Virus record (IMG/VR): IMGVR_UViG_2529292720_000011
Reading direction: 5' to 3' (one strand)
Length of the DNA stretch: 28,769 bases
Source: a virus
Lineage: Duplodnaviria > Heunggongvirae > Uroviricota > Caudoviricetes
Made by a program: the position numbers and the translations under genes. The notes beneath the pieces are model-generated. The model saw only the letters and a list, made by a program, of their open reading frames with translations. It had not been told where the DNA came from and ran no database searches. Positions 1-28,769 of the stretch are shown in pieces. The stretch's first letter is position 1. Every line of letters begins with the position of its first letter.

Positions 1-1002
1 TTACCCTCTATTGTCAAAAGGGTTCAATTCAACAGCAGCCTCTAAATGACCTGGAGCAAAATGCGCATAACGCATAGTCATTTTTATATCGCTATGCCCC
101 AGTATTTTTTGCAACACAAGAATATTTCCGCCCCGCATCATAAAATGACTGGCAAACGTGTGACGTAGCACATGAGTTAATTGCCCATCAGGAAGCTCGA
201 TCTTCGCTCTCTTAATTGCAGCGTCAAAAGCCTCATAACATGGTGAAAATAGCGCTCCTCGTTTTTTAGGAAGCATAGCCTGCAATTGAGGTGAAATCGG
301 TACAGTGCGGTTCTTCTTTCCTTTAGTTTTAACAAATGTGATTCGACCGGGCAGTACTTGAGATTGCTTTAATCCTTCTGCTTCACTCCACCGAGCACCA
401 GTCGCAAGCCCAATACGGACAACAACCCCCAAATCTTTATTCCGTGACTCATCACACGCAATCAGAAGGCGTTCAATCTCATCTACATACAGAAACGCCA
501 GTTCCTTTTCTTCCTCACGAAACTTGCGAATACCAGTCAGGGGGTTTTCACCAGACCACTCCCCAAGGCGCTTCAGTTCGGCAAAAACAGCATGTAGATA
601 TGACTGCTCGCGATTAACGGTTGCTTCACTAAGTTTTTTCTTCCCCTTGGGATTCCATTCTCCTGATAGCCTTCTTTCCCGATAAGTAGCAAACATATTT
701 TTGTCAAACTGCGAAGCAAATGGATCTCCCAGCCTGGAACAAATCGCCTCAAGTTTGACTTTGCGCTCTGCACCAGAGGACAAGGTTTTACCGTACATCT
801 CAAACCAACGAGCAATCAACTCAGAAAGACGAGGACCAGAACCATCTTGAAACTCGTCTCCAACTCTACTATTCATTAAACGGCGCTCATAAGAGAGCGC
901 CTCACTTTTTGTCGCAAACTGTTTACGAATGCGTTTTCCCGATGCCCCGTAGGGATAACATTCGCAAAGCCATTTACCTGATGGAATCTTACGAACCGAC
1001 AT
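1..1002 (-). CDS. int: Tyrosine recombinase / phage integrase (P2-186 type)
   Basis: 333-aa ORF with the C-terminal catalytic signature HVLRHTFASHF...LGHSDIKMTMRYAH. It is the last gene of the minus-strand repressor operon, as in P2. The window starts at its stop codon. Confidence 0.95.
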   Translation of the reverse strand: MSVRKIPSGKWLCECYPYGASGKRIRKQFATKSEALSYERRLMNSRVGDEFQDGSGPRLSELIARWFEMYGKTLSSGAERKVKLEAICSRLGDPFASQFDKNMFATYRERRLSGEWNPKGKKKLSEATVNREQSYLHAVFAELKRLGEWSGENPLTGIRKFREEEKELAFLYVDEIERLLIACDESRNKDLGVVVRIGLATGARWSEAEGLKQSQVLPGRITFVKTKGKKNRTVPISPQLQAMLPKKRGALFSPCYEAFDAAIKRAKIELPDGQLTHVLRHTFASHFMMRGGNILVLQKILGHSDIKMTMRYAHFAPGHLEAAVELNPFDNRG

Positions 1003-1007
1003 TTTAG

Positions 1008-1354
1008 TTACTTATCACATAAATCAAATGCAGCCTTAGTGACATCCCCCAGACTCTTTTTTAACCCTGGGGCGGCATCATTATCTAGCCAAAATGGATT
1101 ATTGTTATCTAACGGTAACGCACCAAATGTTTTACCTTTTATTCGAGCCAAACCTGTAAGTGCATATAACTTATTATCGTCAAAATTCATTACATAAGGA
1201 TTACCATCAAGACACTGTAATTGAACCTCATCAGTATTAAATGGCCACACCCCATTGAAACTCTCACGTTCAATGGTTTTAAAAGGCATTGCGACGGCGG
1301 AAAAAGAAAACATAGATAAAAAGTAACTAATAGTTGAACCTTTTTAACTTTCAT
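1008..1354 (-). pseudogene. DUF2511/YebY-like periplasmic protein, signal peptide separated by a 1-nt frameshift
   Basis: ORF 1008..1313 (101 aa) resembles E. coli YebY as I recall it (W.FN..EV.L.C ... Y.L.G ... KKSL ... LC). It has no SD and no signal peptide of its own. A GAGG SD plus ATG at 1354 opens MKVKKVQLLVTF in another frame. One extra base in the A5 run at 1318-1322 would give MKVKKVQLLVTFLSMFSFSAVA|MPFK, a canonical Sec signal. Confidence 0.5.
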
Positions 1355-1383
1355 ATCATTACCTCAATTTAGCTCAAGTAAGA

Positions 1384-2034
1384 TTACAAATTAAAAAACG
1401 CTCTAGAAATGACACCGCCTACCAACCCCCCTACGCAGATAAAGAATATTATTTCTTTTGGATAAAGTCGGATTAATTCTGAAGCACGAAGTCGGACTTC
1501 TGGTAAGGTCGAACTCTCTGTGTGGCTTGATGCCGATTGTTGCTCTAACCACGACAATGCAGACTGTAACTGAGAACGAGTAAGATCGTTTAAACGTCCT
1601 GTACCGAAATTGATATGGCAATACCGCAGAAGTTTTTGTCGAAGTCCACAGTCTTCACTGTTACGTAGTAATAAACTTACAAGAGCCTTACAGGCATCAT
1701 GATCTTTACATCGCTCAAGCATTGCATGCAGAAAACTCTCCGCTGTTTTATATTGATTTACTGTCATATCATCAATACCAGCTACACCAATCTCCGCATG
1801 TACTTTTTGCCAAATAATAAACGCTTCAGTATTGCTAGCTTCTGCAATAGCAGCAACCAAGCTATTTAGCTCCTTACGCTGAGCCTTAAGCAAAGGGCGA
1901 TCGTCATCATCATTATTCGAAGGGATTGCGATATTGACGGTATGAGAACCATCATATCGCTCTATCTGAATATTCTTTTCGTGAAAATCACGCCCAGCAA
2001 CGCGATTGTTTGAACCGTTTGAGTTGACGGCCAT
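1384..2034 (-). CDS. Tail-anchored membrane protein of unknown function, co-transcribed with the repressor
   Basis: 216-aa ORF with SD GGAGG 4 nt upstream. There is a single C-terminal hydrophobic helix (IIFFICVGGLVGGVISRAFF). The N-terminus GSNNRVAGRDF repeats the C-terminal motif of the upstream repressor. I recognise no catalytic motif. Confidence 0.8.
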   Translation of the reverse strand: MAVNSNGSNNRVAGRDFHEKNIQIERYDGSHTVNIAIPSNNDDDDRPLLKAQRKELNSLVAAIAEASNTEAFIIWQKVHAEIGVAGIDDMTVNQYKTAESFLHAMLERCKDHDACKALVSLLLRNSEDCGLRQKLLRYCHINFGTGRLNDLTRSQLQSALSWLEQQSASSHTESSTLPEVRLRASELIRLYPKEIIFFICVGGLVGGVISRAFFNL

Positions 2035-2049
2035 GTCACCTCCCTACTA

Positions 2050-2454
2050 TCACCTGCCCTTAGTTTCGTTATAGTCACGACCAGCGATACGGTTATTACC
2101 ACCAGAAATATTTAACTCACGTCCTGATGGCTGAGTTTCCTTTTCACTGATCGCACCTTTTAAAGCCCCAATCACCGCGTTTTTCACATCTAACGAAGCT
2201 GCTCGAAAGCGAGTAATCAACTCCTGCTCATCATCGTTATAAGTTTCAGGTGAGTGAATTCCCAACACAACATACTGAACATCAAGGCCAAAACGAGACA
2301 GCGCTGCCAAATACGCAGCATCAGGAAAGCTATCTCCTTTCTCATATCTAAGCTGAGTTAGCTTTTTGACTCCACCAATGTCGCTCATGGCTACTTGACT
2401 AAGTCCCAATCTTTCCCTTTCCTCACGCAACCGCTGACCAATATCATTTTTCAT
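2050..2454 (-). CDS. XRE/Cro-CI family HTH repressor (immunity repressor by position)
   Basis: 134 aa. The N-terminal HTH is IGQRLREERERLGLSQVAMSDIGGVKKLTQLRYEKGDSFPDAAYLAALSRFGLDVQYVVLG. It is divergent from the early operon, like P2 C and 186 cI. The C-terminal tail ends GGNNRIAGRDYNETKGR. Confidence 0.85.
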   Translation of the reverse strand: MKNDIGQRLREERERLGLSQVAMSDIGGVKKLTQLRYEKGDSFPDAAYLAALSRFGLDVQYVVLGIHSPETYNDDEQELITRFRAASLDVKNAVIGALKGAISEKETQPSGRELNISGGNNRIAGRDYNETKGR

Positions 2455-2529
2455 ACAAAAACCTTGACAGGTATCTTTTTTGATACCAAAATGATTTCAC
2501 GAGCTATTAGATGATCACAATATACCACT
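2455..2529. promoter_or_regulatory. Divergent immunity-switch promoter/operator region
   Basis: 75-bp gap between the divergent repressor and early genes. Plus-strand TTGACA (2464-2469), 17-nt spacer, CAAAAT (2487-2492). A perfect dyad GGTATC (2470-2475) T6 GATACC (2482-2487) fills the spacer. A third TATACC half-site lies at 2521-2526. Confidence 0.55.
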
Positions 2530-2736
2530 ATGAAACAAGTTCTTCACGATACCAGATCACGCATTCCGCGTAACACCGCCACAGGTCCAAGACTGGCCCT
2601 TCGGCTGTCCCTCGAGGAGCGAGCCGTCATTGATGAAATGGCAGCTAAAGAACAACGCTCATCCTCTAACATGGCGCGCATGATCTTCCTTCGCGGCCTA
2701 GAACTAACCCAGAAAGAACAAAACAAATCTTCCTGA
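2530..2736 (+). CDS. Ribbon-helix-helix (CopG/Arc-like) small DNA-binding protein, first early gene
   Basis: 68 aa. RLALRLSLEERAVIDEMAAKEQRSSSNMARMIFLRGLE fits the RHH pattern of a beta strand plus two helices. It occupies the Cro/Apl/Cox position. Confidence 0.6.
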   Translation: MKQVLHDTRSRIPRNTATGPRLALRLSLEERAVIDEMAAKEQRSSSNMARMIFLRGLELTQKEQNKSS

Positions 2737-2752
2737 TCAAGAGGCTAGTGGG

Positions 2753-2956
2753 ATGTCAGGTATAACCATCAATATCAATGTGAATGCCCCCTATGTATCC
2801 CTGCAGAAATATGCAGAGATAACAGGTATCCCTCTTAATACATGCAAAAAGATGTTGGCTGACGGTCGAATTATTATCCGCCCCAAACGCGCCAAAATGG
2901 AAAAGCCTGAAGTAAACCTTGTGGCGATGTTAAAAGACGCTTTGACTAACAGCTAA
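2753..2956 (+). CDS. Cox/Apl-like excisionase-type HTH regulator
   Basis: 67 aa. YVSLQKYAEITGIPLNTCKKMLADGRIIIRPK resembles the P2 Cox HTH region (from memory). It is the second gene of the early operon. Confidence 0.55.
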   Translation: MSGITININVNAPYVSLQKYAEITGIPLNTCKKMLADGRIIIRPKRAKMEKPEVNLVAMLKDALTNS

Positions 2957-2977
2957 AACAATGAACAGAGCACCATC

Positions 2978-3328
2978 ATGAAAAAAAACGCTAATAATCC
3001 ATACTCCAAATTTCGTAATGGCGTAGAACGCCATGTACACCACGTCGCTACCAGTGCATCACGTAGTAACAGTCGCTATAACCTTAACGAGACGCACGCA
3101 ACACCGGATGGCCACGCTGTAAAACAAATCGGCGAGCATGCCTGGCTGATTGAGAAAGCTGGAATCGTGGTCCACAAATGCCCACGCAATCCGTTTACCG
3201 GAAACCGCATTTTTGCTCTAAGCAGTGGCGACAATCAGTTCGGGCAGGATTTCACATTATACGAAGCACTTCGCACGGTTGATCGTCTGCTTCGCGGGCA
3301 AAGTTTTATTAAACAGGCTGATTTATAA
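2978..3328 (+). CDS. Hypothetical early protein (116 aa)
   Basis: ORF in a tightly packed early operon. No recognisable motif. Confidence 0.6.
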   Translation: MKKNANNPYSKFRNGVERHVHHVATSASRSNSRYNLNETHATPDGHAVKQIGEHAWLIEKAGIVVHKCPRNPFTGNRIFALSSGDNQFGQDFTLYEALRTVDRLLRGQSFIKQADL

Positions 3329-3338
3329 CAGGTGCTTT

Positions 3339-3626
3339 ATGACCAAAGACCATGCACAAGGTGTATTTATCCGTTTTATTGATTTTCGCGGTGAACTGTT
3401 ATTACGTGCATCCGCTATTGACGGAGTGACTCCGGCGGGTAAAAACGGAGCCGACGAAGCCACTTACGTTTATCTGAACGGCACGCGACTGCTTGTGGAA
3501 CTTCCGTACCAGACCGTACGAGAAATCATTAGCGAAGCTGAAAAGGCACGCCAGGTTAATGGCGATGAACCCTATATCGAAATTATTTGTATGGATTCAG
3601 AAGCTGAAATACAGAAAGCAGATTAA
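3339..3626 (+). CDS. Hypothetical early protein (95 aa)
   Basis: ATG at 3339, 10 nt after the previous stop, in frame with track ORF 3225..3626. The upstream part of that ORF overlaps the preceding gene. Confidence 0.6.
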   Translation: MTKDHAQGVFIRFIDFRGELLLRASAIDGVTPAGKNGADEATYVYLNGTRLLVELPYQTVREIISEAEKARQVNGDEPYIEIICMDSEAEIQKAD

Positions 3627-4076: not shown

Positions 4077-4280
4077 ATGGCAATTAAGCATTTTCCTGTC
4101 GTTCGTTTTACCTCCAGAGGGCGGGAATACGAAGTCGACGAACGCCTGATTACCACAATCGACAAACACCGTTCAGAAAAGGATGCACATCACATCTATC
4201 TCACTGACGGCACTTACTTCTGCGCCACGAATGTGGTGCGGGTGAACCTTATCCGACAGGTACAGGAGTCACGCAGATGA
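4077..4280 (+). CDS. Hypothetical early protein (67 aa)
   Basis: Strong SD AAGGAGG 6 nt upstream of the ATG. The stop overlaps the next start. Confidence 0.7.
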   Translation: MAIKHFPVVRFTSRGREYEVDERLITTIDKHRSEKDAHHIYLTDGTYFCATNVVRVNLIRQVQESRR

Positions 4281-4522
4281 CCATTCTGGACTATATTGCC
4301 GCCAATCCGGGGTGTAGCGGTGGAGAAATCGCCGCAGCACTGAATACCCCAACCACAGCCATTAATGCGGAGTTACGCCGACTCTGGCGCAGCGGTTCAG
4401 TCATAAGAAAAGAGCGCAAAACAGGCGGTCGCTTTTCTTACCAGATAAACCCGATGCCGTTCGGGTGTGGCAATCCACTTACCAACATGTTTAACCAGCT
4501 ACTGAAGGAAGCCAGAGCATGA
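4277..4522 (+). CDS. Winged-helix DNA-binding protein (81 aa)
   Basis: ILDYIAANPGCSGGEIAAALNTPTTAINAELRRLWRSGSVIRKERK fits an ArsR/MarR-like wHTH pattern. It is translationally coupled on both sides. Confidence 0.65.
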   Translation: MTILDYIAANPGCSGGEIAAALNTPTTAINAELRRLWRSGSVIRKERKTGGRFSYQINPMPFGCGNPLTNMFNQLLKEARA

Positions 4523-4818
4523 GCGCCATCAACCACAAGGAATTACGCGAACTGGCGACTGACCTGCAACGAATGGCAACGCCTCAAAAATTACTGGCGT
4601 TTCGCGCAATGCTCTCGCCGTCTGCTGTGCTGGCACTGCTGGATGAGCTGGAGCACGCCAGAACCACACCTCTCGCCATTCGCCTGACGCTCCGTCATGA
4701 AATCGAGGATTTCTGCGCGACGTTGGAGGCGCCAGGCGAACCGGAAACGCCGGAAGCAATACAGCAAGAGCTGCTGCAACGCATTGACAAGGTTTTTGAT
4801 TTTTTTCTGAACCACTAA
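4519..4818 (+). CDS. Hypothetical early protein (99 aa), Ead/Ea22-like flavour
   Basis: Coupled start (ATGA). The motif SPSAVLALLDELE is reminiscent of the Ead/Ea22-like family. The assignment is weak. Confidence 0.55.
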   Translation: MSAINHKELRELATDLQRMATPQKLLAFRAMLSPSAVLALLDELEHARTTPLAIRLTLRHEIEDFCATLEAPGEPETPEAIQQELLQRIDKVFDFFLNH

Positions 4819-4831
4819 GAAACCAGAACAT

Positions 4832-4969
4832 GCACACACAAAAAAACCGCTTGCCATGCCGCAATCAGTCAGGTTACATTTCCGCTGCACCTCATAAAAC
4901 GGGTGCCGGGTTTCGCAGCCCGCTGACAAACGTAGCGCACAACCGCGCCAGCGGTTTTTTTGTGCGTAC
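4832..4969. repeat. 138-bp element closed by a 20-nt inverted repeat, with U7-tailed hairpins on both strands
   Basis: GCACACACAAAAAAACCGCT (4832-4851) matches the reverse complement of AGCGGTTTTTTTGTGCGTAC (4950-4969) at 18/20 positions, with a perfect 13-nt core. The local hairpin AACCGC-GCCA-GCGGTT plus T7 (4941-4961) looks like an intrinsic terminator. Confidence 0.5.
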
Positions 4970-5002
4970 TGTATCGCCACGTCTTTTTCGCATCTGAATT
5001 AT

Positions 5003-5078
5003 GGTGGGGCGTACGGGGCCGACTTCGGTCGGGCCGGGTTCTGCGTTTGCCGGTACTGCGAACCTCGTACGTCTCGCC
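5003..5078 (+). ncRNA. Candidate 76-nt Y-shaped structured RNA
   Basis: Hand fold. A 13-bp closing helix pairs 5003-5015 with 5066-5078 (10 Watson-Crick pairs, 3 G.U). Hairpin 5017-5035 has a C(UUCG)G tetraloop at 5023-5028. Hairpin 5037-5064 has an 11-nt loop. The junction is three-way with single-nucleotide linkers. It sits in a 320-bp non-coding gap. Confidence 0.35.
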
Positions 5079-5140
5079 ACCCACAGTTTCGCAGCTCTGG
5101 ATGGTGAGGTTTCAAAACTTACACACGTAGAGGCCACACC

Positions 5141-5371
5141 ATGGCAAACCGCAAACAGCACCGCGCTATCGCGGAGCGTCGTCACATCCAGACTGAAATC
5201 AACCGCAGACTTTCCCGCGCATCACGCGTCGCGCAAATCATGCACATCAATATGCTGCATGAGCGTAGCTGCGAACTTTCAAACCTCTATTCATCCGCTG
5301 TTTTCAGTTATCTGGCGGATGATCTGCGCGAGCTTCAGCAGCTCATCCAGCAGCAAAACAAACTCCATTAA
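5141..5371 (+). CDS. Hypothetical early protein (76 aa, basic N-terminus)
   Basis: SD GAGG 8 nt upstream of the ATG. The product is a helical basic protein. Confidence 0.65.
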   Translation: MANRKQHRAIAERRHIQTEINRRLSRASRVAQIMHINMLHERSCELSNLYSSAVFSYLADDLRELQQLIQQQNKLH

Positions 5372-5443
5372 TTCCTGTTCCGGGCCTTTCCTGCACCTTG
5401 CGGCGGGAGGCCTTCGCACATCTGTAACAAGAGGATTGCCGCA

Positions 5444-5809
5444 ATGATTCTCGCCAACGACTTTCTTGAATACCTGCTCAACACAGAACGTGATCTTGCC
5501 GTTCGCGTGCGTGAACGTTATGACATGTACCTGAAATCCCTGCCTGTACCGCAGCTCGCTGACGGAAAGATTGTTATTGATGGTCGCTACATGATTGACA
5601 GCCACGAGGGAAATTACAGGCTTTACCGCATTGAAGGTGGCACCCCGTCCGTTATTGGCATTTACCAGCGCCCATCCTCTGCAATCGTCGATGTGATTGC
5701 CGACAGCATCCGCATCACACATCGCCATGCCGACACAGAAGACACCGTGCTGGAAATTCAGCGGCTGGCTACAGTCTGCCGCGACACCCTGAATGGCATA
5801 ACGAAGTAA
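5444..5809 (+). CDS. Hypothetical early protein (121 aa)
   Basis: ORF immediately upstream of gpA. No motif recognised. Confidence 0.65.
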   Translation: MILANDFLEYLLNTERDLAVRVRERYDMYLKSLPVPQLADGKIVIDGRYMIDSHEGNYRLYRIEGGTPSVIGIYQRPSSAIVDVIADSIRITHRHADTEDTVLEIQRLATVCRDTLNGITK

Positions 5810-5815
5810 ATCACT

Positions 5816-8623
5816 ATGACGGCAGAGTACATCAGGGACTGGCAGCAACCGCGCCACGCAGTGGGGCGTGAAGGAACGGGGATCCCCGCTCCTGAATCCG
5901 CGCTTTCCTCCTGGCTGGATGCCTACCGGGCAGAGAACGAGCGCTGCCAGGAAATGGCTGATGCGGCGTTCTCCGCCACGCCGCTGGGCAACCTGATTAA
6001 TAAAAGCCTGGACGCACAGGAAAAACAGGACAAAACCATCACACTGGCAGGAGACGCCAGAAAGCAGGTACGCGGCGCGGTGGATGAAGCCATGGCCTCG
6101 CTGCGCCTGCTGCCATCCTATCTGCGCGATCCGCTTATTCGCCACCTCTCCTTCCTGCGCAAAAAACAGGAATCTGACCGCCAGAAAGGTAAAAAGAACC
6201 AGCAGGCTGAACGCTACGCGCGCGGGACCCTGCGCAAAATATTCGAACGTCTGGATCGCACTGACGGGCGCTGGCTGACACCGGGTTATCGCTCCCTTGC
6301 CGGGCGCGAACGCCTGGACGATTTGCTTTCCCTGCCGCAGCTCAACAAGCACCAGATACAGACGCTGGCCACCATGACGGCGGCGATGTTCAGCAGCACC
6401 TTCGAAACACTCTGCGATGGCTTTGGTGCCAGAGATGGCGAGCTGACCATGGATGTAATGTTGAAGGCTTACCGGATGCTGGCCCGTATCGCATTACGCC
6501 TGCACATCATGCCGCCACATTACGAAGCCCTGAACAAGAGCGATCCGGATACGGAACTGTTACCGGGCGCAATCCTTCGCCTGACCTGTGCGGAATGGTG
6601 GAAACGCAAATTGTGGCTGTTACGTTGCGAGTGGAGAGAAGAACAACTCCGCGCCGCCTGTCTGGTTTCCAGAAAAACATCACCCTATCTGAGCCAGGAC
6701 GCGTTAAGCGAGTTTCGCGCACAGCGCGAGAAAACACGCGATTTCCTGAAAAGTTTCATGCTGGAAAACGAAGACGGGTTCACGATTGATCTCGAGACAG
6801 TGTATTACGCGGGAGTAAGTAACCCGGTTCACCGTAAGGCAGAAATGATGGCCACCATGAAGGGGCTGGAACTTCTGGCCGAAGCCCGTGGCGACAAAGC
6901 GGTGTTTCTGACTGTCACCTGCCCGTCAAAATACCACGCCACAACAGAGAACGGTCATCCGAATCCCAAATGGAACGGGGCCACCATGCGCGACTCCAGC
7001 GATTACCTGGTTAACACGTTTTTTGCGGCGGTCCGCAAGAAACTGAACCGCGACGGCCTGCGCTGGTATGGCATCCGCACGGTGGAGCCTCACCATGACG
7101 GCACCGTGCACTGGCATATGATGGTCTTTGCACATCCGGACGAGATTGAAACCATCGTGTCCCACGTCTGCGATATTGCCATTCAGGAAGACCGCCACGA
7201 GCTGGGCGATGACATAACTCCGCGTTTTAAGGCGGAGTACGTAGACGGCTCAAAAGGCACACCAACCAGCTACATCGCCACCTACATCGGAAAGAACCTG
7301 GACAGCCGCGCCGTGGATGGCATCGACCAGAAAACGGGCAAGCCACGCGTTGACCACGAAACCGGAAAATCAATGGCCGAGAGCGTGGAACGCGCCATCG
7401 GCTGGGCGCGCCTTCACCGGGTCCGCCAGTTCCAGTTCTTTGGCATCCCCTCCCGTCAGGTGTGGCGTGAACTCCGCCGCCTTGCCAGCCAGATGGCACG
7501 CAACCCGGAAGGCCCGCAACGGCTGAAGGATGACGCAATGGATGCGGTACTCGCTGCCGCTGATGCAGGATGTTTTGCCACCTACATAGAGAAACAGGGC
7601 GGCGTACTTGTTCCACGCAAAGACTACCTGATTCGCACCGCCTACGACCTCGCCGATGAGCTGAACGATTACGGCGAACAGAGCGTACAGATTTACGGGA
7701 TCTGGTCACCACTCATCGGGGAATCCTCCCGTGTGTGCACGCATCCGGATAACTGGAAGCTGGTAAGACGCAAACCGGAAGCGGAAGACAGCGCCCGCGA
7801 AAATGGTTTTGACCTTCAGGGCGGCCCTGCCGCCCCTTGGACTCGTGGCAATAACTGTCCCCGTGTACAGGAAACAGGCAACAGCGGGACAGAACAGTCG
7901 AAAGAACGGCCAGCACCGTGGCCGCAGCTTCCTGACGGCGTTGAAGTGAACGAATGGATGCGCTCACTGAAACGGCACGAACGCCGGGCGCTGATGCGTT
8001 CGCTTCGTGACAAACAGGTAAAAAACAGCAGTGATGAAATGCAGAGCTGGACACAGAGCCGCAAACAGCAGCGGCCTTTGCCTGATAACCACGAATTACT
8101 CGCTAAAGAATGGCGGGAGTCTGCCGAATCTCTCGGCCTGCATATCGGTGAACAGCAGATGCAGCACCTGCTACGGGGCGGCAGCCTGTACGTTGACGGC
8201 AGCATCATTGCACCGCAGGGATATGAAATTGTACGCAAACCGGATACCCGCCCGGACAGCCGAATCACGCAGCTCTGGCAGCACCTGAGCCGTAATCACG
8301 GCGTAAGCAGCACGGAGATCCGCCATAACCCGGTCGCCAGCTATCTGGCACAGCTGGGGGCATCAGACCCCGAAGCCGCCGCACGCCTGGCATCCGCACT
8401 TCAGCAGGATCAGAACACCATGAAAACACCCGTTACCGTGCTTTCTGACATGCTGCGCGCCATCCGCGACGCAGAGCACGCACAGAGAATCAGTGAAACC
8501 ACTGAACGCGCCAGCCGCAAAGCAGACCTGCTGCAGGGTGGCCTGACCAGTGGAAACAAAAAACAGACAGAAACGGGATCCACAAATCCCGTAAATGAGC
8601 AAAAAACGCGCCGCGATATATGA
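5816..8623 (+). CDS. A: Replication initiation endonuclease, P2 gpA family (HUH rolling-circle initiator)
   Basis: 935 aa. It has the HUH-type motif VEPHHDGTVHWHMMVF and the catalytic Tyr motif SYIATYIGKN, typical of P2/186 A. The C-terminal ~230 aa is a charged, low-complexity extension beyond P2 A, which I recall as ~761 aa. Confidence 0.9.
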   Translation: MTAEYIRDWQQPRHAVGREGTGIPAPESALSSWLDAYRAENERCQEMADAAFSATPLGNLINKSLDAQEKQDKTITLAGDARKQVRGAVDEAMASLRLLPSYLRDPLIRHLSFLRKKQESDRQKGKKNQQAERYARGTLRKIFERLDRTDGRWLTPGYRSLAGRERLDDLLSLPQLNKHQIQTLATMTAAMFSSTFETLCDGFGARDGELTMDVMLKAYRMLARIALRLHIMPPHYEALNKSDPDTELLPGAILRLTCAEWWKRKLWLLRCEWREEQLRAACLVSRKTSPYLSQDALSEFRAQREKTRDFLKSFMLENEDGFTIDLETVYYAGVSNPVHRKAEMMATMKGLELLAEARGDKAVFLTVTCPSKYHATTENGHPNPKWNGATMRDSSDYLVNTFFAAVRKKLNRDGLRWYGIRTVEPHHDGTVHWHMMVFAHPDEIETIVSHVCDIAIQEDRHELGDDITPRFKAEYVDGSKGTPTSYIATYIGKNLDSRAVDGIDQKTGKPRVDHETGKSMAESVERAIGWARLHRVRQFQFFGIPSRQVWRELRRLASQMARNPEGPQRLKDDAMDAVLAAADAGCFATYIEKQGGVLVPRKDYLIRTAYDLADELNDYGEQSVQIYGIWSPLIGESSRVCTHPDNWKLVRRKPEAEDSARENGFDLQGGPAAPWTRGNNCPRVQETGNSGTEQSKERPAPWPQLPDGVEVNEWMRSLKRHERRALMRSLRDKQVKNSSDEMQSWTQSRKQQRPLPDNHELLAKEWRESAESLGLHIGEQQMQHLLRGGSLYVDGSIIAPQGYEIVRKPDTRPDSRITQLWQHLSRNHGVSSTEIRHNPVASYLAQLGASDPEAAARLASALQQDQNTMKTPVTVLSDMLRAIRDAEHAQRISETTERASRKADLLQGGLTSGNKKQTETGSTNPVNEQKTRRDI

Positions 8624-8699: not shown

Positions 8700-9659
8700 A
8701 TGAAAATTTGTATCGACGACGGCTCCACCAACATCAAGCTGGCATGGACTGAGAACGGCGAACGCCGCAACGCCATCAGCCCGAACAGCTTCAAGTCGGA
8801 ATGGTCTGCGCCGTTCGGTGGCACGCATCCCGCGAACTACATGCTTGATGGCGTGCGCTATGGCTTTGATCCGGTCAGCGATCGTTTTGTCCAGACGACT
8901 GACACGCAATACCAGTACAGCGATGTGAATGTAATCGCCATTCATCACGCGCTGGTCAAATCAGGCATCACGCCACAGGAGGTGGATGTGGTTGTCACCC
9001 TGCCACTGAGCGAGTATTTCGACACAAACGCACAGCCGGACATGGCCAACATCAACCGCAAAAAAGCGAACGTCATGCGCCCGGTGGAGTACCAGAACGG
9101 CGAAGCATTCACTATCCGTAACGTACGGGTTATGCCTGAATCCATTCCGGCTGGCTTTAAGGCACTGGCTGACATGAGTCCGTTTGAATCCCTGCTGATT
9201 GTGGATTTGGGCGGAACCACGCTGGATGTGGCAAAGGTTCAGGGGCAGCTGGCAGGTATCAGCCAGGTGTTTTGCGATCCAAACGTAGGCGTTTCCCTGA
9301 TGGCTGATGCCGTGCTGTCGGTGATGGCCACTAACGGTATGCGTACCAGTCACCACATCGCCAATACCATTATTGAGCACCGTCACGATGAAGCCTGGCT
9401 GCGCCAGCACATTCACAATGACGCGCATTACAACAGCCTGATGGCGGTTATTCGTGAAAAGGAGGAGACACTGAAACAACGAGTGATCCGCGCGCTGGCG
9501 GGTTTTTCCGGTTACGGGCGGGTGATGGTTGTCGGTGGAGGGGCGGAGATTGTGGCACCCGCTATCCGCGAAGCCTGCGGAGTTAATGCGACTTTCATCG
9601 CGGACGGGGTGCCACAGTTTGCTCTGGTTAATGGGCTGTACGCAATGAACAAGGAGTAA
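8700..9659 (+). CDS. parM: Actin-like plasmid segregation ATPase ParM (StbA family)
   Basis: 319 aa, colinear with plasmid R1 ParM as I recall it. Shared blocks: IDDGSTNIKL, ISPNSFK.EW, QYSDVNV.A.HHAL, VMPESIPAG, DSLLI.DLGGTTLD, VMV.GGGAE, LVNG.Y. Confidence 0.9.
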   Translation: MKICIDDGSTNIKLAWTENGERRNAISPNSFKSEWSAPFGGTHPANYMLDGVRYGFDPVSDRFVQTTDTQYQYSDVNVIAIHHALVKSGITPQEVDVVVTLPLSEYFDTNAQPDMANINRKKANVMRPVEYQNGEAFTIRNVRVMPESIPAGFKALADMSPFESLLIVDLGGTTLDVAKVQGQLAGISQVFCDPNVGVSLMADAVLSVMATNGMRTSHHIANTIIEHRHDEAWLRQHIHNDAHYNSLMAVIREKEETLKQRVIRALAGFSGYGRVMVVGGGAEIVAPAIREACGVNATFIADGVPQFALVNGLYAMNKE

Positions 9660-9663
9660 ACCA

Positions 9664-9975
9664 ATGACGACACCAACCAGAAGAATAAGTTTCTATCTGA
9701 AGCCAGCTGCCGTCAAGAACGAAGGAGAAGCATGCGCATGGCTGGACAGCCTTACACCAGAAGCCCGCAAAAGCGGCCAACGCGTGGCTTTTCTGGCCGG
9801 GCTGGCACTTCTGAAGACGAATCCGGCAGAGGCTTACCGACTGGCCGCATGGGCTGATGATGAGATGTTACCTGTGACACAAATCAGCTCAAAAAAGTTT
9901 GAAGCACAGTCTGCACCAGTGGCTAAGATAACCAGCCAGATGGCTGGGAATATCCGGGCGTTATTTCCTGGGTAA
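9664..9975 (+). CDS. parR: ParR-like centromere-binding adaptor
   Basis: 103 aa. RRISFYLKP...ACAWLDSLTPEARKSGQRVAFLAGLALLKTNP parallels R1 ParR RRTIAFKLNP...LDSIPQGERSRLNRAALTAGLALYRQDP (from memory). SD AAGGAG. It directly follows parM. Confidence 0.75.
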   Translation: MTTPTRRISFYLKPAAVKNEGEACAWLDSLTPEARKSGQRVAFLAGLALLKTNPAEAYRLAAWADDEMLPVTQISSKKFEAQSAPVAKITSQMAGNIRALFPG

Positions 9976-19335: not shown

Positions 19336-19486
19336 CACTCCCACATGGGGAAATCTCGGTATATGGGGCGACCGCCTTCTGGATGCACTGGAAACCTGTA
19401 ACGCGGATAAACGGGCCATTGAATTACTGGAACAGCGCAGGCTGCAACGACTGAACAACGAGGACAACAACCATGCTGAAAACTGA
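19196..19486 (+). CDS. o-spanin lipoprotein (Rz1 / LysC-like), overlapped architecture
   Basis: MNAPPLCLMLVLLTGC has a lipobox, followed by a proline-rich body. The gene starts inside the i-spanin gene in another frame and extends beyond it. Confidence 0.75.
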   Translation: MNAPPLCLMLVLLTGCAGTLNAPRPAPSVRLIPQTLTIPVTPPPVPDTPTWGNLGIWGDRLLDALETCNADKRAIELLEQRRLQRLNNEDNNHAEN

Positions 19487-19940
19487 TTCCCTGCGTGAAG
19501 CCATGACCCGTTCATGCCGATGGTGTCAGGCCAACCCGGAAAAATTCACCATTTTCGTGGAGAGCGGCAACATTGAAACGACCGGAGAAACGCCCTCGTT
19601 TGTTTAACGCTATCAGATGGTGATGTTTGTCATGGATTACGCCGGGGAGCTGGACGACCTCACGCTGCCGCTACTGGCGTGGTTATCCGAAAATCAGCCA
19701 CAGTTGTTGCTCAATCCGGAGCGTAATCAGGACATCAAATTTTCCGCCGTTATCAATGACGATGACAGCGCCGATCTCCTGTTTACGCTCCCCCTGCGGG
19801 AACGCGTTCGCATTACGCGCAACAGTCAGGGGACACCGCAGGCAGAACACCTGCCGGAGCCAAAACCCCGTCTGCCCTCTTCCGAAGGCGACTGGTCGCA
19901 TGTATTCCAGGATGTGACGTGGGGTGAAAGCAATGGATAA
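19473..19940 (+). pseudogene. R: Tail completion protein gpR interrupted by an in-frame TAA
   Basis: MLKTDSLREA...ETPSFV then TAA (19605-19607) then RYQMVMFVMDYAGELDDLTLPLLAWLSENQP, all in one frame. This is colinear with P2 R (...SFEKRYTLNVIVTDFTGDFDLLIVPVLAWLRENQP, from memory). Confidence 0.8.

Positions 19941-28482: not shown

Positions 28483-28769
<287 letters not shown>

Follow-up and report, generated by a model that had tools for sequence, protein, structure and literature searches.

A membrane-anchored Flk_N protein shares a co-varying terminal motif with the adjacent immunity repressor in P2-like and Mu-like prophages

The classic 'non-inducible' temperate phages are those of the P2 type, and the control of their repressor in vivo is poorly understood. 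In lambda (cI-rexA-rexB) and ICEBs1 (immR-immA-int), accessory genes are co-transcribed with the immunity repressor; those of ICEBs1 sit between the repressor gene and int and regulate the repressor, ImmA being a protease, and RexB of lambda is a multi-pass membrane protein. The stretch of DNA analysed here, referred to as the window (28,769 nucleotides (nt), IMG/VR record IMGVR_UViG_2529292720_000011), corresponds to the left part of a P2-like (Xuanwuvirus-type) prophage. A helix-turn-helix (HTH) repressor gene is followed in it by a gene for a tail-anchored protein of 216 amino acids (aa), here called the partner (Table 1). The N-terminus of the partner (the head) carries a motif that matches one in the C-terminal tail of the repressor, and the two motifs co-vary among related prophages. 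The accessory genes of lambda and ICEBs1 have no homology to that of the 216-aa protein, and neither ImmA nor RexB is known to share a terminal motif with its repressor.

Parallels to such a pair are found in several described systems. SinR/SinI (and SlrR/SlrA) of B. subtilis consist of an XRE-type HTH repressor and an antagonist encoded by the neighbouring gene; SinI resembles the oligomerisation (C-terminal interaction) region of SinR, and a hetero-complex replaces the homo-oligomer. In amyloid signalling pairs (fungal HET-S/NWD2; bacterial BASS1-11, such as Bab/Agp), a short motif is present at the C-terminus of one product and the N-terminus of the adjacent one, many motif classes co-vary within their pairs, the motifs are G/N/Q-rich, leucine-poor and disordered in the monomer, and one member is at the membrane. 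Like the locus described here, Bab/Agp is prophage-borne (bioRxiv 10.1101/2024.11.07.622273). Membrane anti-sigma factors (sigmaE-RseA) have the same order of a regulator gene and a co-transcribed membrane protein gene, and at our locus too the cytoplasmic N-terminus of the membrane protein would bind the regulator. Lastly, Flk (RflH, 'Fluke') of Salmonella and E. coli has the same Flk_N domain as the 216-aa protein.

The tail motif of the repressor and the head motif of the partner are identical at 10 of 17 residues. Six of the ten shared residues use different synonymous codons, and nucleotide identity over the motif is 30/51, so the similarity has been maintained in the protein sequences and did not arise by recent duplication; codon usage likewise rules out a recent gene conversion as its source. 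A read-through fusion of the two open reading frames (ORFs) was also considered, and is ruled out by three in-frame stops (TGA-TAG-TAG). The head motif is conserved across the family of the 216-aa protein, and the core of the tail, R-[IV]-A-G-R-D-[YF], is retained in most Enterobacterales homologues of the repressor, even at 40% overall identity. Both motifs lie in segments that are disordered in the monomer AlphaFold2 (AF2) models (predicted local distance difference test, pLDDT, <50). Repressor tails differ markedly in composition from the repressor bodies (G+N+Q 36% vs 17%; Leu 1.5% vs 10.7%) and end with a basic K/R cluster.

Related loci (labelled L and a number) were gathered by seeding with Flk_N and, as a partner-independent sample, with the repressor alone, giving 183 in total. 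The 98 Flk_N-seeded loci come from Klebsiella, Serratia, Erwinia, Mixta, Rosenbergiella, Izhakiella, Enterobacter and IMG/VR prophages, and all have a tail-bearing HTH repressor 5' of the partner, with the tail consensus ...[IV]x[IV][ST]Gxx[NHQ]R[IV]AGRD[YF]xExK and a spacing between the two genes of about 9–15 nt, or 4-nt overlaps. Direct adjacency is broken only in L013, an Erwinia pyrifoliae prophage (4274-7261), where YebY lies between the two and the order is repressor, YebY, Flk_N partner, 198-aa protein and int. Repressor homologues of other clades carry different G/N/Q-rich tails of the same style, for example QIFNGDISGQFAGNQIINN in Pectobacterium, GEGQIAGGNIY in Gilliamella and GQQFNGPVGTVTSGDVVNH in a repressor annotated as Pseudomonas aeruginosa. 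They sit in Mu-like transposable prophages, which have rve and AAA_22 genes and lack int, and each is directly followed by a tail-anchored Flk_N protein with a head that matches the local tail (QEFNGTAQGQFSSRDIIN, AEQIAGRDIYN and NQQFHDRVHQVAAGDIKN). Since it is present in both P2-like and Mu-like prophages, the cassette is independent of int; the partner gene is part of the immunity module and accompanies the repressor type in two phage architectures that are unrelated to each other.

Over all 183 loci, a Flk_N match was found in 169. Among the 14 without one, L133 and L181 are cut by contig ends, and the distant L186 and L187 are the only ones without a partner; nearly all the remainder have a different membrane protein 3' of the repressor, and its N-terminus matches the local tail. 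These replacements include a bare two-transmembrane (TM) protein, a protein with a zinc ribbon and two TM segments, and one with a coiled coil, one TM segment and a presumed periplasmic two-cysteine domain. All partners examined for TM segments (18 loci) have at least one, and the large N-terminal part of the partners is probably cytoplasmic. In the partners of L173, L157, L175, L183 and L174 a single TM segment is followed by a conserved C-terminal domain of ~60–80 aa with two cysteines (C-x-[FY]-x-G-x-x-[YF]-[SA]-x-G ... C-V ... W), which is presumably periplasmic and could be a sensor module. The cassette occurs in about 9% of complete E. coli genomes (504/5426) and is widespread in prophages of Klebsiella, Serratia, Enterobacter, Pectobacterium and Gilliamella, as well as in Mu-like prophages with a repressor annotated as Pseudomonas aeruginosa; a pattern scan of genome contigs, with narrow back-translated patterns, returned six loci.

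Co-variation within pairs was evaluated with 13 non-redundant motif classes. Cognate tails and heads gave a local alignment score of 41.8, compared with 24.3 (standard deviation 8.9) for non-cognate combinations, and none of 100,000 permutations reached the observed cognate sum (p about 1e-5). A natural swap is seen between L104 and L152, whose repressors differ, by direct sequence comparison, at only 4 of the first 101 residues but have tails of different classes; the partner heads track the tails, on bodies that are unrelated (Flk_N, 194 aa, versus zinc ribbon and two TM segments, 118 aa). Pectobacterium-type repressors that are ~96% identical carry either an NRVAGRDY or a QIFNGDISGQFAGNQIIN tail, each with a matching partner.

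These comparisons bear on the proposal of the first-pass annotation that the two genes between the repressor and int are acquired cargo. One rival reading is that both are ordinary unrelated morons and that the motifs are alike by chance. The segment is certainly low in guanine plus cytosine (GC), as had been judged by eye: region 1008-2034 has a GC content of 0.392 versus 0.518 for the whole window, ranks 5/1110 from the lowest among equal-sized sliding windows, and is the most AT-rich kilobase of the window. Gene content beside int also varies among relatives. However, the dip is due mainly to the DUF2511 gene (0.357), and the gene for the 216-aa protein (0.415) is near the repressor (0.442) and int (0.450). 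Together with the permutation result and the near-universal adjacency of repressor and partner in two unrelated phage types, the comparative data argue strongly against chance and unrelated cargo, an explanation we consider to have a negligible probability and reject. The cargo label does not suit the 216-aa gene, because it is tied to this class of repressor and not to the position between C and int: it follows the repressor, is also present in int-less Mu-like prophages and shares a co-varying terminal motif with the repressor. It suits the DUF2511 gene, which has the lowest GC and occupies a variable slot. A survey of the genes between C and int had also been suggested, and in the relatives it is the slot 3' of the partner that varies, whereas the partner itself is a near-constant neighbour of the repressor.

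The repressor has an XRE-type HTH domain (residues 5-64), two helices (74-104) and a disordered C-terminal tail (105-134). It matches HTH_31/HTH_3 in Pfam and transcriptional regulator/repressor families in PHROG, and PADLOC returned only weak HTH matches to RmrA. The best Foldseek matches of its AF2 model were SinR in the SinR/SinI complex (1b0n; top match) and P22 c2. As in the SinI type of antagonism, an adjacent gene encodes a protein that shares sequence with what would be the interaction region of the repressor. The differences from SinR/SinI are that the shared element is a disordered, G/N/Q-rich tail and not a helical hook, that the partner is large and membrane-anchored, that the repressor gene comes first and that the setting is a phage immunity region.

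The first-pass annotation had stated that no motif could be assigned to the 216-aa protein, and this was incorrect. Flk_N (PF27202) is precomputed on homologues of the protein, including one that is 98% identical (the model is not in the Pfam copy used to scan the window proteins directly), and the NCBIfam Flk model (NF007987) matches residues 37-166 (E 8.6e-16). With 58 bits against an equivalog cut-off of 353, the protein does not qualify as Flk proper. BLASTP with K-12 Flk gave 28% identity over 124 residues (E 2e-10; Flk residues 26-146) plus a weaker alignment farther along Flk, and PHROG 5825 was matched with an E value of 2e-102. The AF2 model is disordered over residues 1-43 and has helices at 50-172 (pLDDT 80–89) and a TM helix at 192-215; hydropathy of the near-identical L054 copy places the TM segment at 193-212, and no signal peptide is visible in the sequence. 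The single C-terminal TM anchor proposed earlier is thus borne out by model and hydropathy, and the tail-anchored topology is the same as that of Flk proper. The Flk_N domain has many invariant residues (for example FGTGRLNDL). A search of the PDB with the family profile gave no meaningful match; Pfam matches to zf-P11, ELYS and FANCF were sub-threshold noise, and those of homologues to GemA and ORF6C were below the cut-off. Weak PHROG Ant matches were also returned.

The Flk_N family as a whole is small, with 137 clusters at 50% identity among 1.84 billion proteins, and is split between true Flk (320–430 aa, with a Pro/Gly-rich N-terminus) and phage-type proteins (about 180–300 aa). Flk itself, of about 330 aa, differs from the prophage-borne 216-aa protein, which has one Flk_N unit, in that it matches that protein in at least two separate stretches, has an N-terminus (MQPxSGP...) in which the head motif is not present, is encoded on the chromosome between pdxB and yfcJ, and acts on the flagellar export gate. 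The same is seen in the K-12 flk gene (L005:1951-2946), where at least two stretches match the phage-type protein and the tail anchor is kept. It is possible that Flk is a relative of the phage protein that became domesticated, or that the relationship is reversed. A Flk mimic serving lysogenic conversion could also be envisaged, in which the protein would modulate host machinery, be it the flagellar type III export switch or something else, and its resemblance to the repressor tail would be incidental. Flk inhibits the flagellar secretion-specificity switch, and has a C-terminal tail anchor with its bulk in the cytoplasm (PMC13344023), so that homology and topology would both suit a mimic. 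The strict linkage and co-variation with the repressor, and the partners that are not Flk_N proteins, would be left unexplained. The protein has a single Flk_N unit, and true Flk lacks the head motif. The family is moreover abundant in prophages of Klebsiella (P0097, in 754 contigs), a genus that is typically non-flagellate, and we regard a Flk mimic as very improbable.

We propose that the repressor and the 216-aa protein form a two-protein immunity cassette in which the partner would act as a tail-mimicking, membrane-tethered anti-repressor or repressor buffer, a proposal that, judged from sequence, we give about an even chance of being right. The partner is most likely a membrane-tethered modulator, and probably a sequestering anti-repressor. 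Its C-terminal anchor would hold it on the cytoplasmic face of the inner membrane, leaving the N-terminal head, a copy of the repressor tail, free to pair with that tail strand to strand in a direct homotypic interaction, which is the simplest reading. In this way the membrane protein would capture or cap the repressor and titrate the pool of free repressor, and a signal from the membrane or envelope could be coupled to the lysis-lysogeny switch. Flk_N or the periplasmic domains would receive the signal. Flk_N, which would serve in sensing or in contact with the host, is replaceable, as the same kind of head is found on other membrane-anchored bodies. The nearest established parallels are SinR/SinI, membrane anti-sigma factors and ICEBs1 immR-immA-int. 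Some partners share with the anti-sigma factors one TM segment followed by a periplasmic domain. The arrangement differs from them in that the target is a repressor and not a sigma factor, a mimicking tail takes the place of a folded anti-sigma domain, and most partners have a tail anchor and lack a periplasmic part.

The data show the gene arrangement, the homologies, the predicted topology, the matching motifs with their co-variation and the near-universal linkage. Several points weigh against the proposal. Physical binding of head and tail, the direction in which it acts, its consequence and the co-transcription of the genes are all inferred, and it is counter-intuitive for a repressor to be co-expressed with its own antagonist. 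Control could instead run from the repressor tail to the membrane protein, which the tail would activate, or the matching tails could reflect a third partner shared by both proteins. The strong conservation of Flk_N implies a specific role that the model leaves open. In addition, the loci were sampled by similarity and include many near-identical E. coli copies, so raw counts overstate their independence, and the test with 13 classes is the fair one.

The features shared with amyloid signalling pairs raise the question of how head and tail might associate. A motif is shared by the C-terminal end of one protein and the N-terminal end of the product of the adjacent gene, it co-varies within pairs across the 13 classes and in the L104/L152 swap, and the sequences are G/N/Q-rich, beta-prone and disordered in the monomer. 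By analogy, head and tail may form a cross-beta pair of the amyloid-signalling type, giving a prion-like, templated and self-propagating control of the switch that could work in either direction, the membrane-anchored sensor turning the repressor off or being turned on by it; we consider this possible, although somewhat unlikely. The known pairs associate an NLR/STAND-type or TPR sensor with a death effector or pore-type protein (Bell, HeLo or Bab), an association not seen at our loci, where a DNA-binding repressor is paired with Flk_N or other membrane proteins. The core motif of the cassette is also shorter (about 17 residues). If true, a cross-beta pair would give P2-like and Mu-like phages a switch control independent of RecA/LexA, with heteroimmunity insulated by motif class, and the Flk of the host would be related to the phage protein as a domesticated form without the head.

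Read in the reverse direction, the cassette would be a defence or exclusion module, with the repressor as sensor and the membrane protein as effector, that works by abortive infection or superinfection exclusion. An event such as infection by a related phage, the action of an anti-repressor or induction would change the state of the repressor, whose tail would then nucleate assembly of the heads, and the clustered partners would damage or close the membrane. This is the architecture of the Bab/Agp abortive-infection pair of E. coli prophage hotspots (bioRxiv 10.1101/2024.11.07.622273). All partners examined are membrane proteins, and the gene is probably expressed in lysogens. Several heads (for example L183 and L174) contain two or three repeats of the motif, and the effector side of HET-s-type systems has repeats as well. 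Against this, no PADLOC defence family or model was matched by the 216-aa protein or by the intact YebY (H10407 copy), and Pfam, PADLOC and PHROG searches detected nothing homologous to RexA/B or to Bell or Bab domains. The bodies of the partners (Flk_N, zinc ribbon, coiled coil with periplasmic domain) resemble sensor or interaction modules rather than pore formers, a repressor that is permanently oligomerised on DNA in the lysogen would be a constitutive and toxic nucleator, and Flk, with the same domain and topology, is a non-toxic regulator. We consider a defence module unlikely. The first-pass annotation had drawn an analogy with lambda rexAB, which is a fair mechanistic lead in that a membrane-associated protein would be co-transcribed with the repressor, though homology is lacking and PADLOC found nothing. 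The role in superinfection exclusion or abortive infection that it suggested is neither shown nor excluded; the protein does fall into a known family, Flk_N, an outcome that the annotation had itself listed as counting against such a role.

A third factor common to both proteins, such as a protease, adaptor or chaperone, could instead recognise tail and head alike, the partner being a decoy that competes for it and so sets the half-life of the repressor. This would be comparable to lambda CIII, which protects CII from FtsH. The motifs are at the extreme termini and disordered, as degrons usually are, the basic K/R cluster ends the repressor tails, and the membrane anchor would place a decoy beside membrane proteases. 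Many classes coexist in the same host groups, however (for example the NRVAGRDY and QIFNGDISGQFAGNQIIN tails of the Pectobacterium type), and one factor would have to recognise all of them, yet each pair keeps its match. Direct homotypic pairing, in contrast, predicts such self-matching. A decoy is, in our estimation, quite unlikely. Returning to the tail-mimicking anti-repressor, we rate the cassette as known regulatory logic in a new form, namely mimicry or membrane sequestration of a transcription factor.

The genes for the repressor, partner, YebY and int are all on the minus strand and separated by gaps of 15, 29 and 5 nt, as reported in the first-pass annotation, taking ATG 1354 as the start of the DUF2511 gene. 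The strong Shine-Dalgarno sequence of the 216-aa ORF was also confirmed (GGGAGGTGAC-ATG; GGGAGG). A scan of the minus strand from 2454 to 1 found no terminator-like site, and the order of repressor, partner, a variable gene and int recurs in prophages of Klebsiella, Serratia, Erwinia and Mixta and in those of IMG/VR. The tight gaps, lack of an intervening terminator and conserved order support the lysogenic operon proposed earlier, and fit a single operon of four genes, with co-transcription inferred.

Table 1. Positions of features at the repressor-int end of the window.
Feature	Position	Strand	Remarks
HTH repressor	2454-2050	minus	134 aa
Repressor tail motif LNISGGNNRIAGRDYNE	2065-2115	minus	Residues 114-130; followed by TKGR at the C-terminus
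216-aa ORF	2034-1384	minus	Tail-anchored Flk_N protein; partner of the repressor
Partner head motif VNSNGSNNRVAGRDFHE	1978-2028	minus	Residues 3-19; preceded by MA
Flk_N helical domain	1537-1902	minus	Residues ~45-166; AF2 and alignment to Flk
C-terminal transmembrane tail anchor	1390-1461	minus	Residues 192-215; AF2 helix
DUF2511/YebY-like periplasmic protein gene	1354-1008 (domain ORF 1313-1008)	minus	Frameshifted; variable cargo slot
Frameshift site, T5 homopolymer	1318-1322	minus	T6 in H10407 and FORC_031 (alignment)
int	1002-1	minus	333 aa; P2-family tyrosine integrase; Pfam Int_N and Phage_integrase; last gene of the putative operon
Switch region	2455-2529		Pe-like promoter, candidate extended -10 and palindrome
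Pe-like promoter	2464-2492	plus	TTGACA-17-CAAAAT; promoter scan
Candidate extended -10	2527-2519	minus	TGgTATATT; read by eye from sequence
Perfect palindrome GGTATCaaaaaaGATACC	2470-2487		Read by eye from sequence

An Arc-like gene and a Cox-like gene lie across the switch region, opposite the repressor. The first is a plus-strand ORF of 68 aa (2530-2736) that matches the PHROG 'Arc-like repressor' family (E 1e-28) and is annotated in Escherichia phage 520873. RefSeq gives a 45-aa hypothetical ORF on the minus strand (~2545-2682) that overlaps it, probably a mis-annotation. The palindrome and additional GGTAT[CA] copies resemble operators. No promoter was detected on the minus strand 5' of the repressor in the promoter scan; with the candidate extended -10 read by eye, the plus- and minus-strand transcripts would overlap head-on, as in P2. 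In L014 and L016 (1-103), which have the same cassette, an early-region protein has a weak 'Derepression' (PF25738) match and may represent a second route of repressor control.

Bases 1-3400 of the window are 96.8% identical to phage 520873, and bases 1000-2530 are 100% identical to a prophage in E. coli ETEC-2264 that lies beside yecA, with int adjoining that gene. In the phage 520873 record (L001, 1039-3065), int is split into two coding sequences and the 216-aa gene is unannotated and matches in three pieces; frameshifts or errors in the sequence of that record may be the cause. At ~8700-9975, immediately 3' of the replication endonuclease gene, the annotation gives a ParM-like segregation protein and a partition/stability protein. 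The prophage is decaying, with an internal stop in a tail gene (~19473-19940) and an IS100 inserted near the right end of the window (~28701-28769), and the frameshift in the YebY gene fits with this picture.

The periplasmic DUF2511/YebY-like protein of the first-pass annotation is supported by a Pfam match (PF10709, 28.9 bits; cut-off 21), but the gene is a pseudogene in the window: ATG 1354 and the domain ORF are in different frames, and the frameshift at the T5 homopolymer separates the signal peptide from the domain. RefSeq labels the identical ETEC-2264 copy 'frameshifted'. This allele is present in only 3/496 complete E. coli genomes, and among E. coli-type IMG/VR copies the shortened 101-aa ORF occurs only in L027. 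The intact allele (H10407) specifies 115 aa with the signal peptide MKVKKVQLLVTFLSMFSFSAVA, and its product is 36% identical to K-12 YebY, a periplasmic, disulfide-bonded protein that resembles MlbQ (PMC8689200). Both cysteine positions (QCLDG and DLCDK) are present in the window translation, and correspond to the conserved disulfide pair described in that study, which also noted YebY beside recombinase and CI-type HTH genes (PMC8689200). It would be a separate periplasmic moron, inactivated in the window. The slot between partner and int holds YebY, DUF8087, a BRCT/WYL-like protein of 288–298 aa, a 244-aa protein or three-gene sets in different relatives, which fits a moron or cargo slot at the GC minimum and acquisition of the DUF2511 gene as cargo. 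The 288–298-aa protein is found in many Klebsiella- and Enterobacter-type relatives (L006:5647-6513, L021, L069, L072, L086, L087, L090, L094, L097-L099 and L101), and the one copy scanned (L006) has an N-terminal BRCT match and weak WYL-like PADLOC matches, making it a candidate cargo or defence gene.

Literature searches (Flk and prophage; P2-like cargo between C and int; repressor and amyloid) did not turn up a description of this cassette or of P2-like or Mu-like repressor tails that match a gene downstream, nor any role in phages for Flk_N, and the amyloid-motif papers checked for these terms mention neither repressors nor phage. The match of head and tail, conserved in many P2-like and Mu-like phages, suggests a previously undescribed way of controlling the lysogeny switch. 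A co-evolving pair of repressor and membrane partner would provide a testable route from the cell envelope to the switch, and would give the Flk_N domain its first functional context. It would also extend the logic of terminal motifs shared by adjacent genes from immune cell-death systems to transcriptional switches, and would define, for these P2-like prophages, a true hotspot of cargo 3' of the partner gene and ahead of int.

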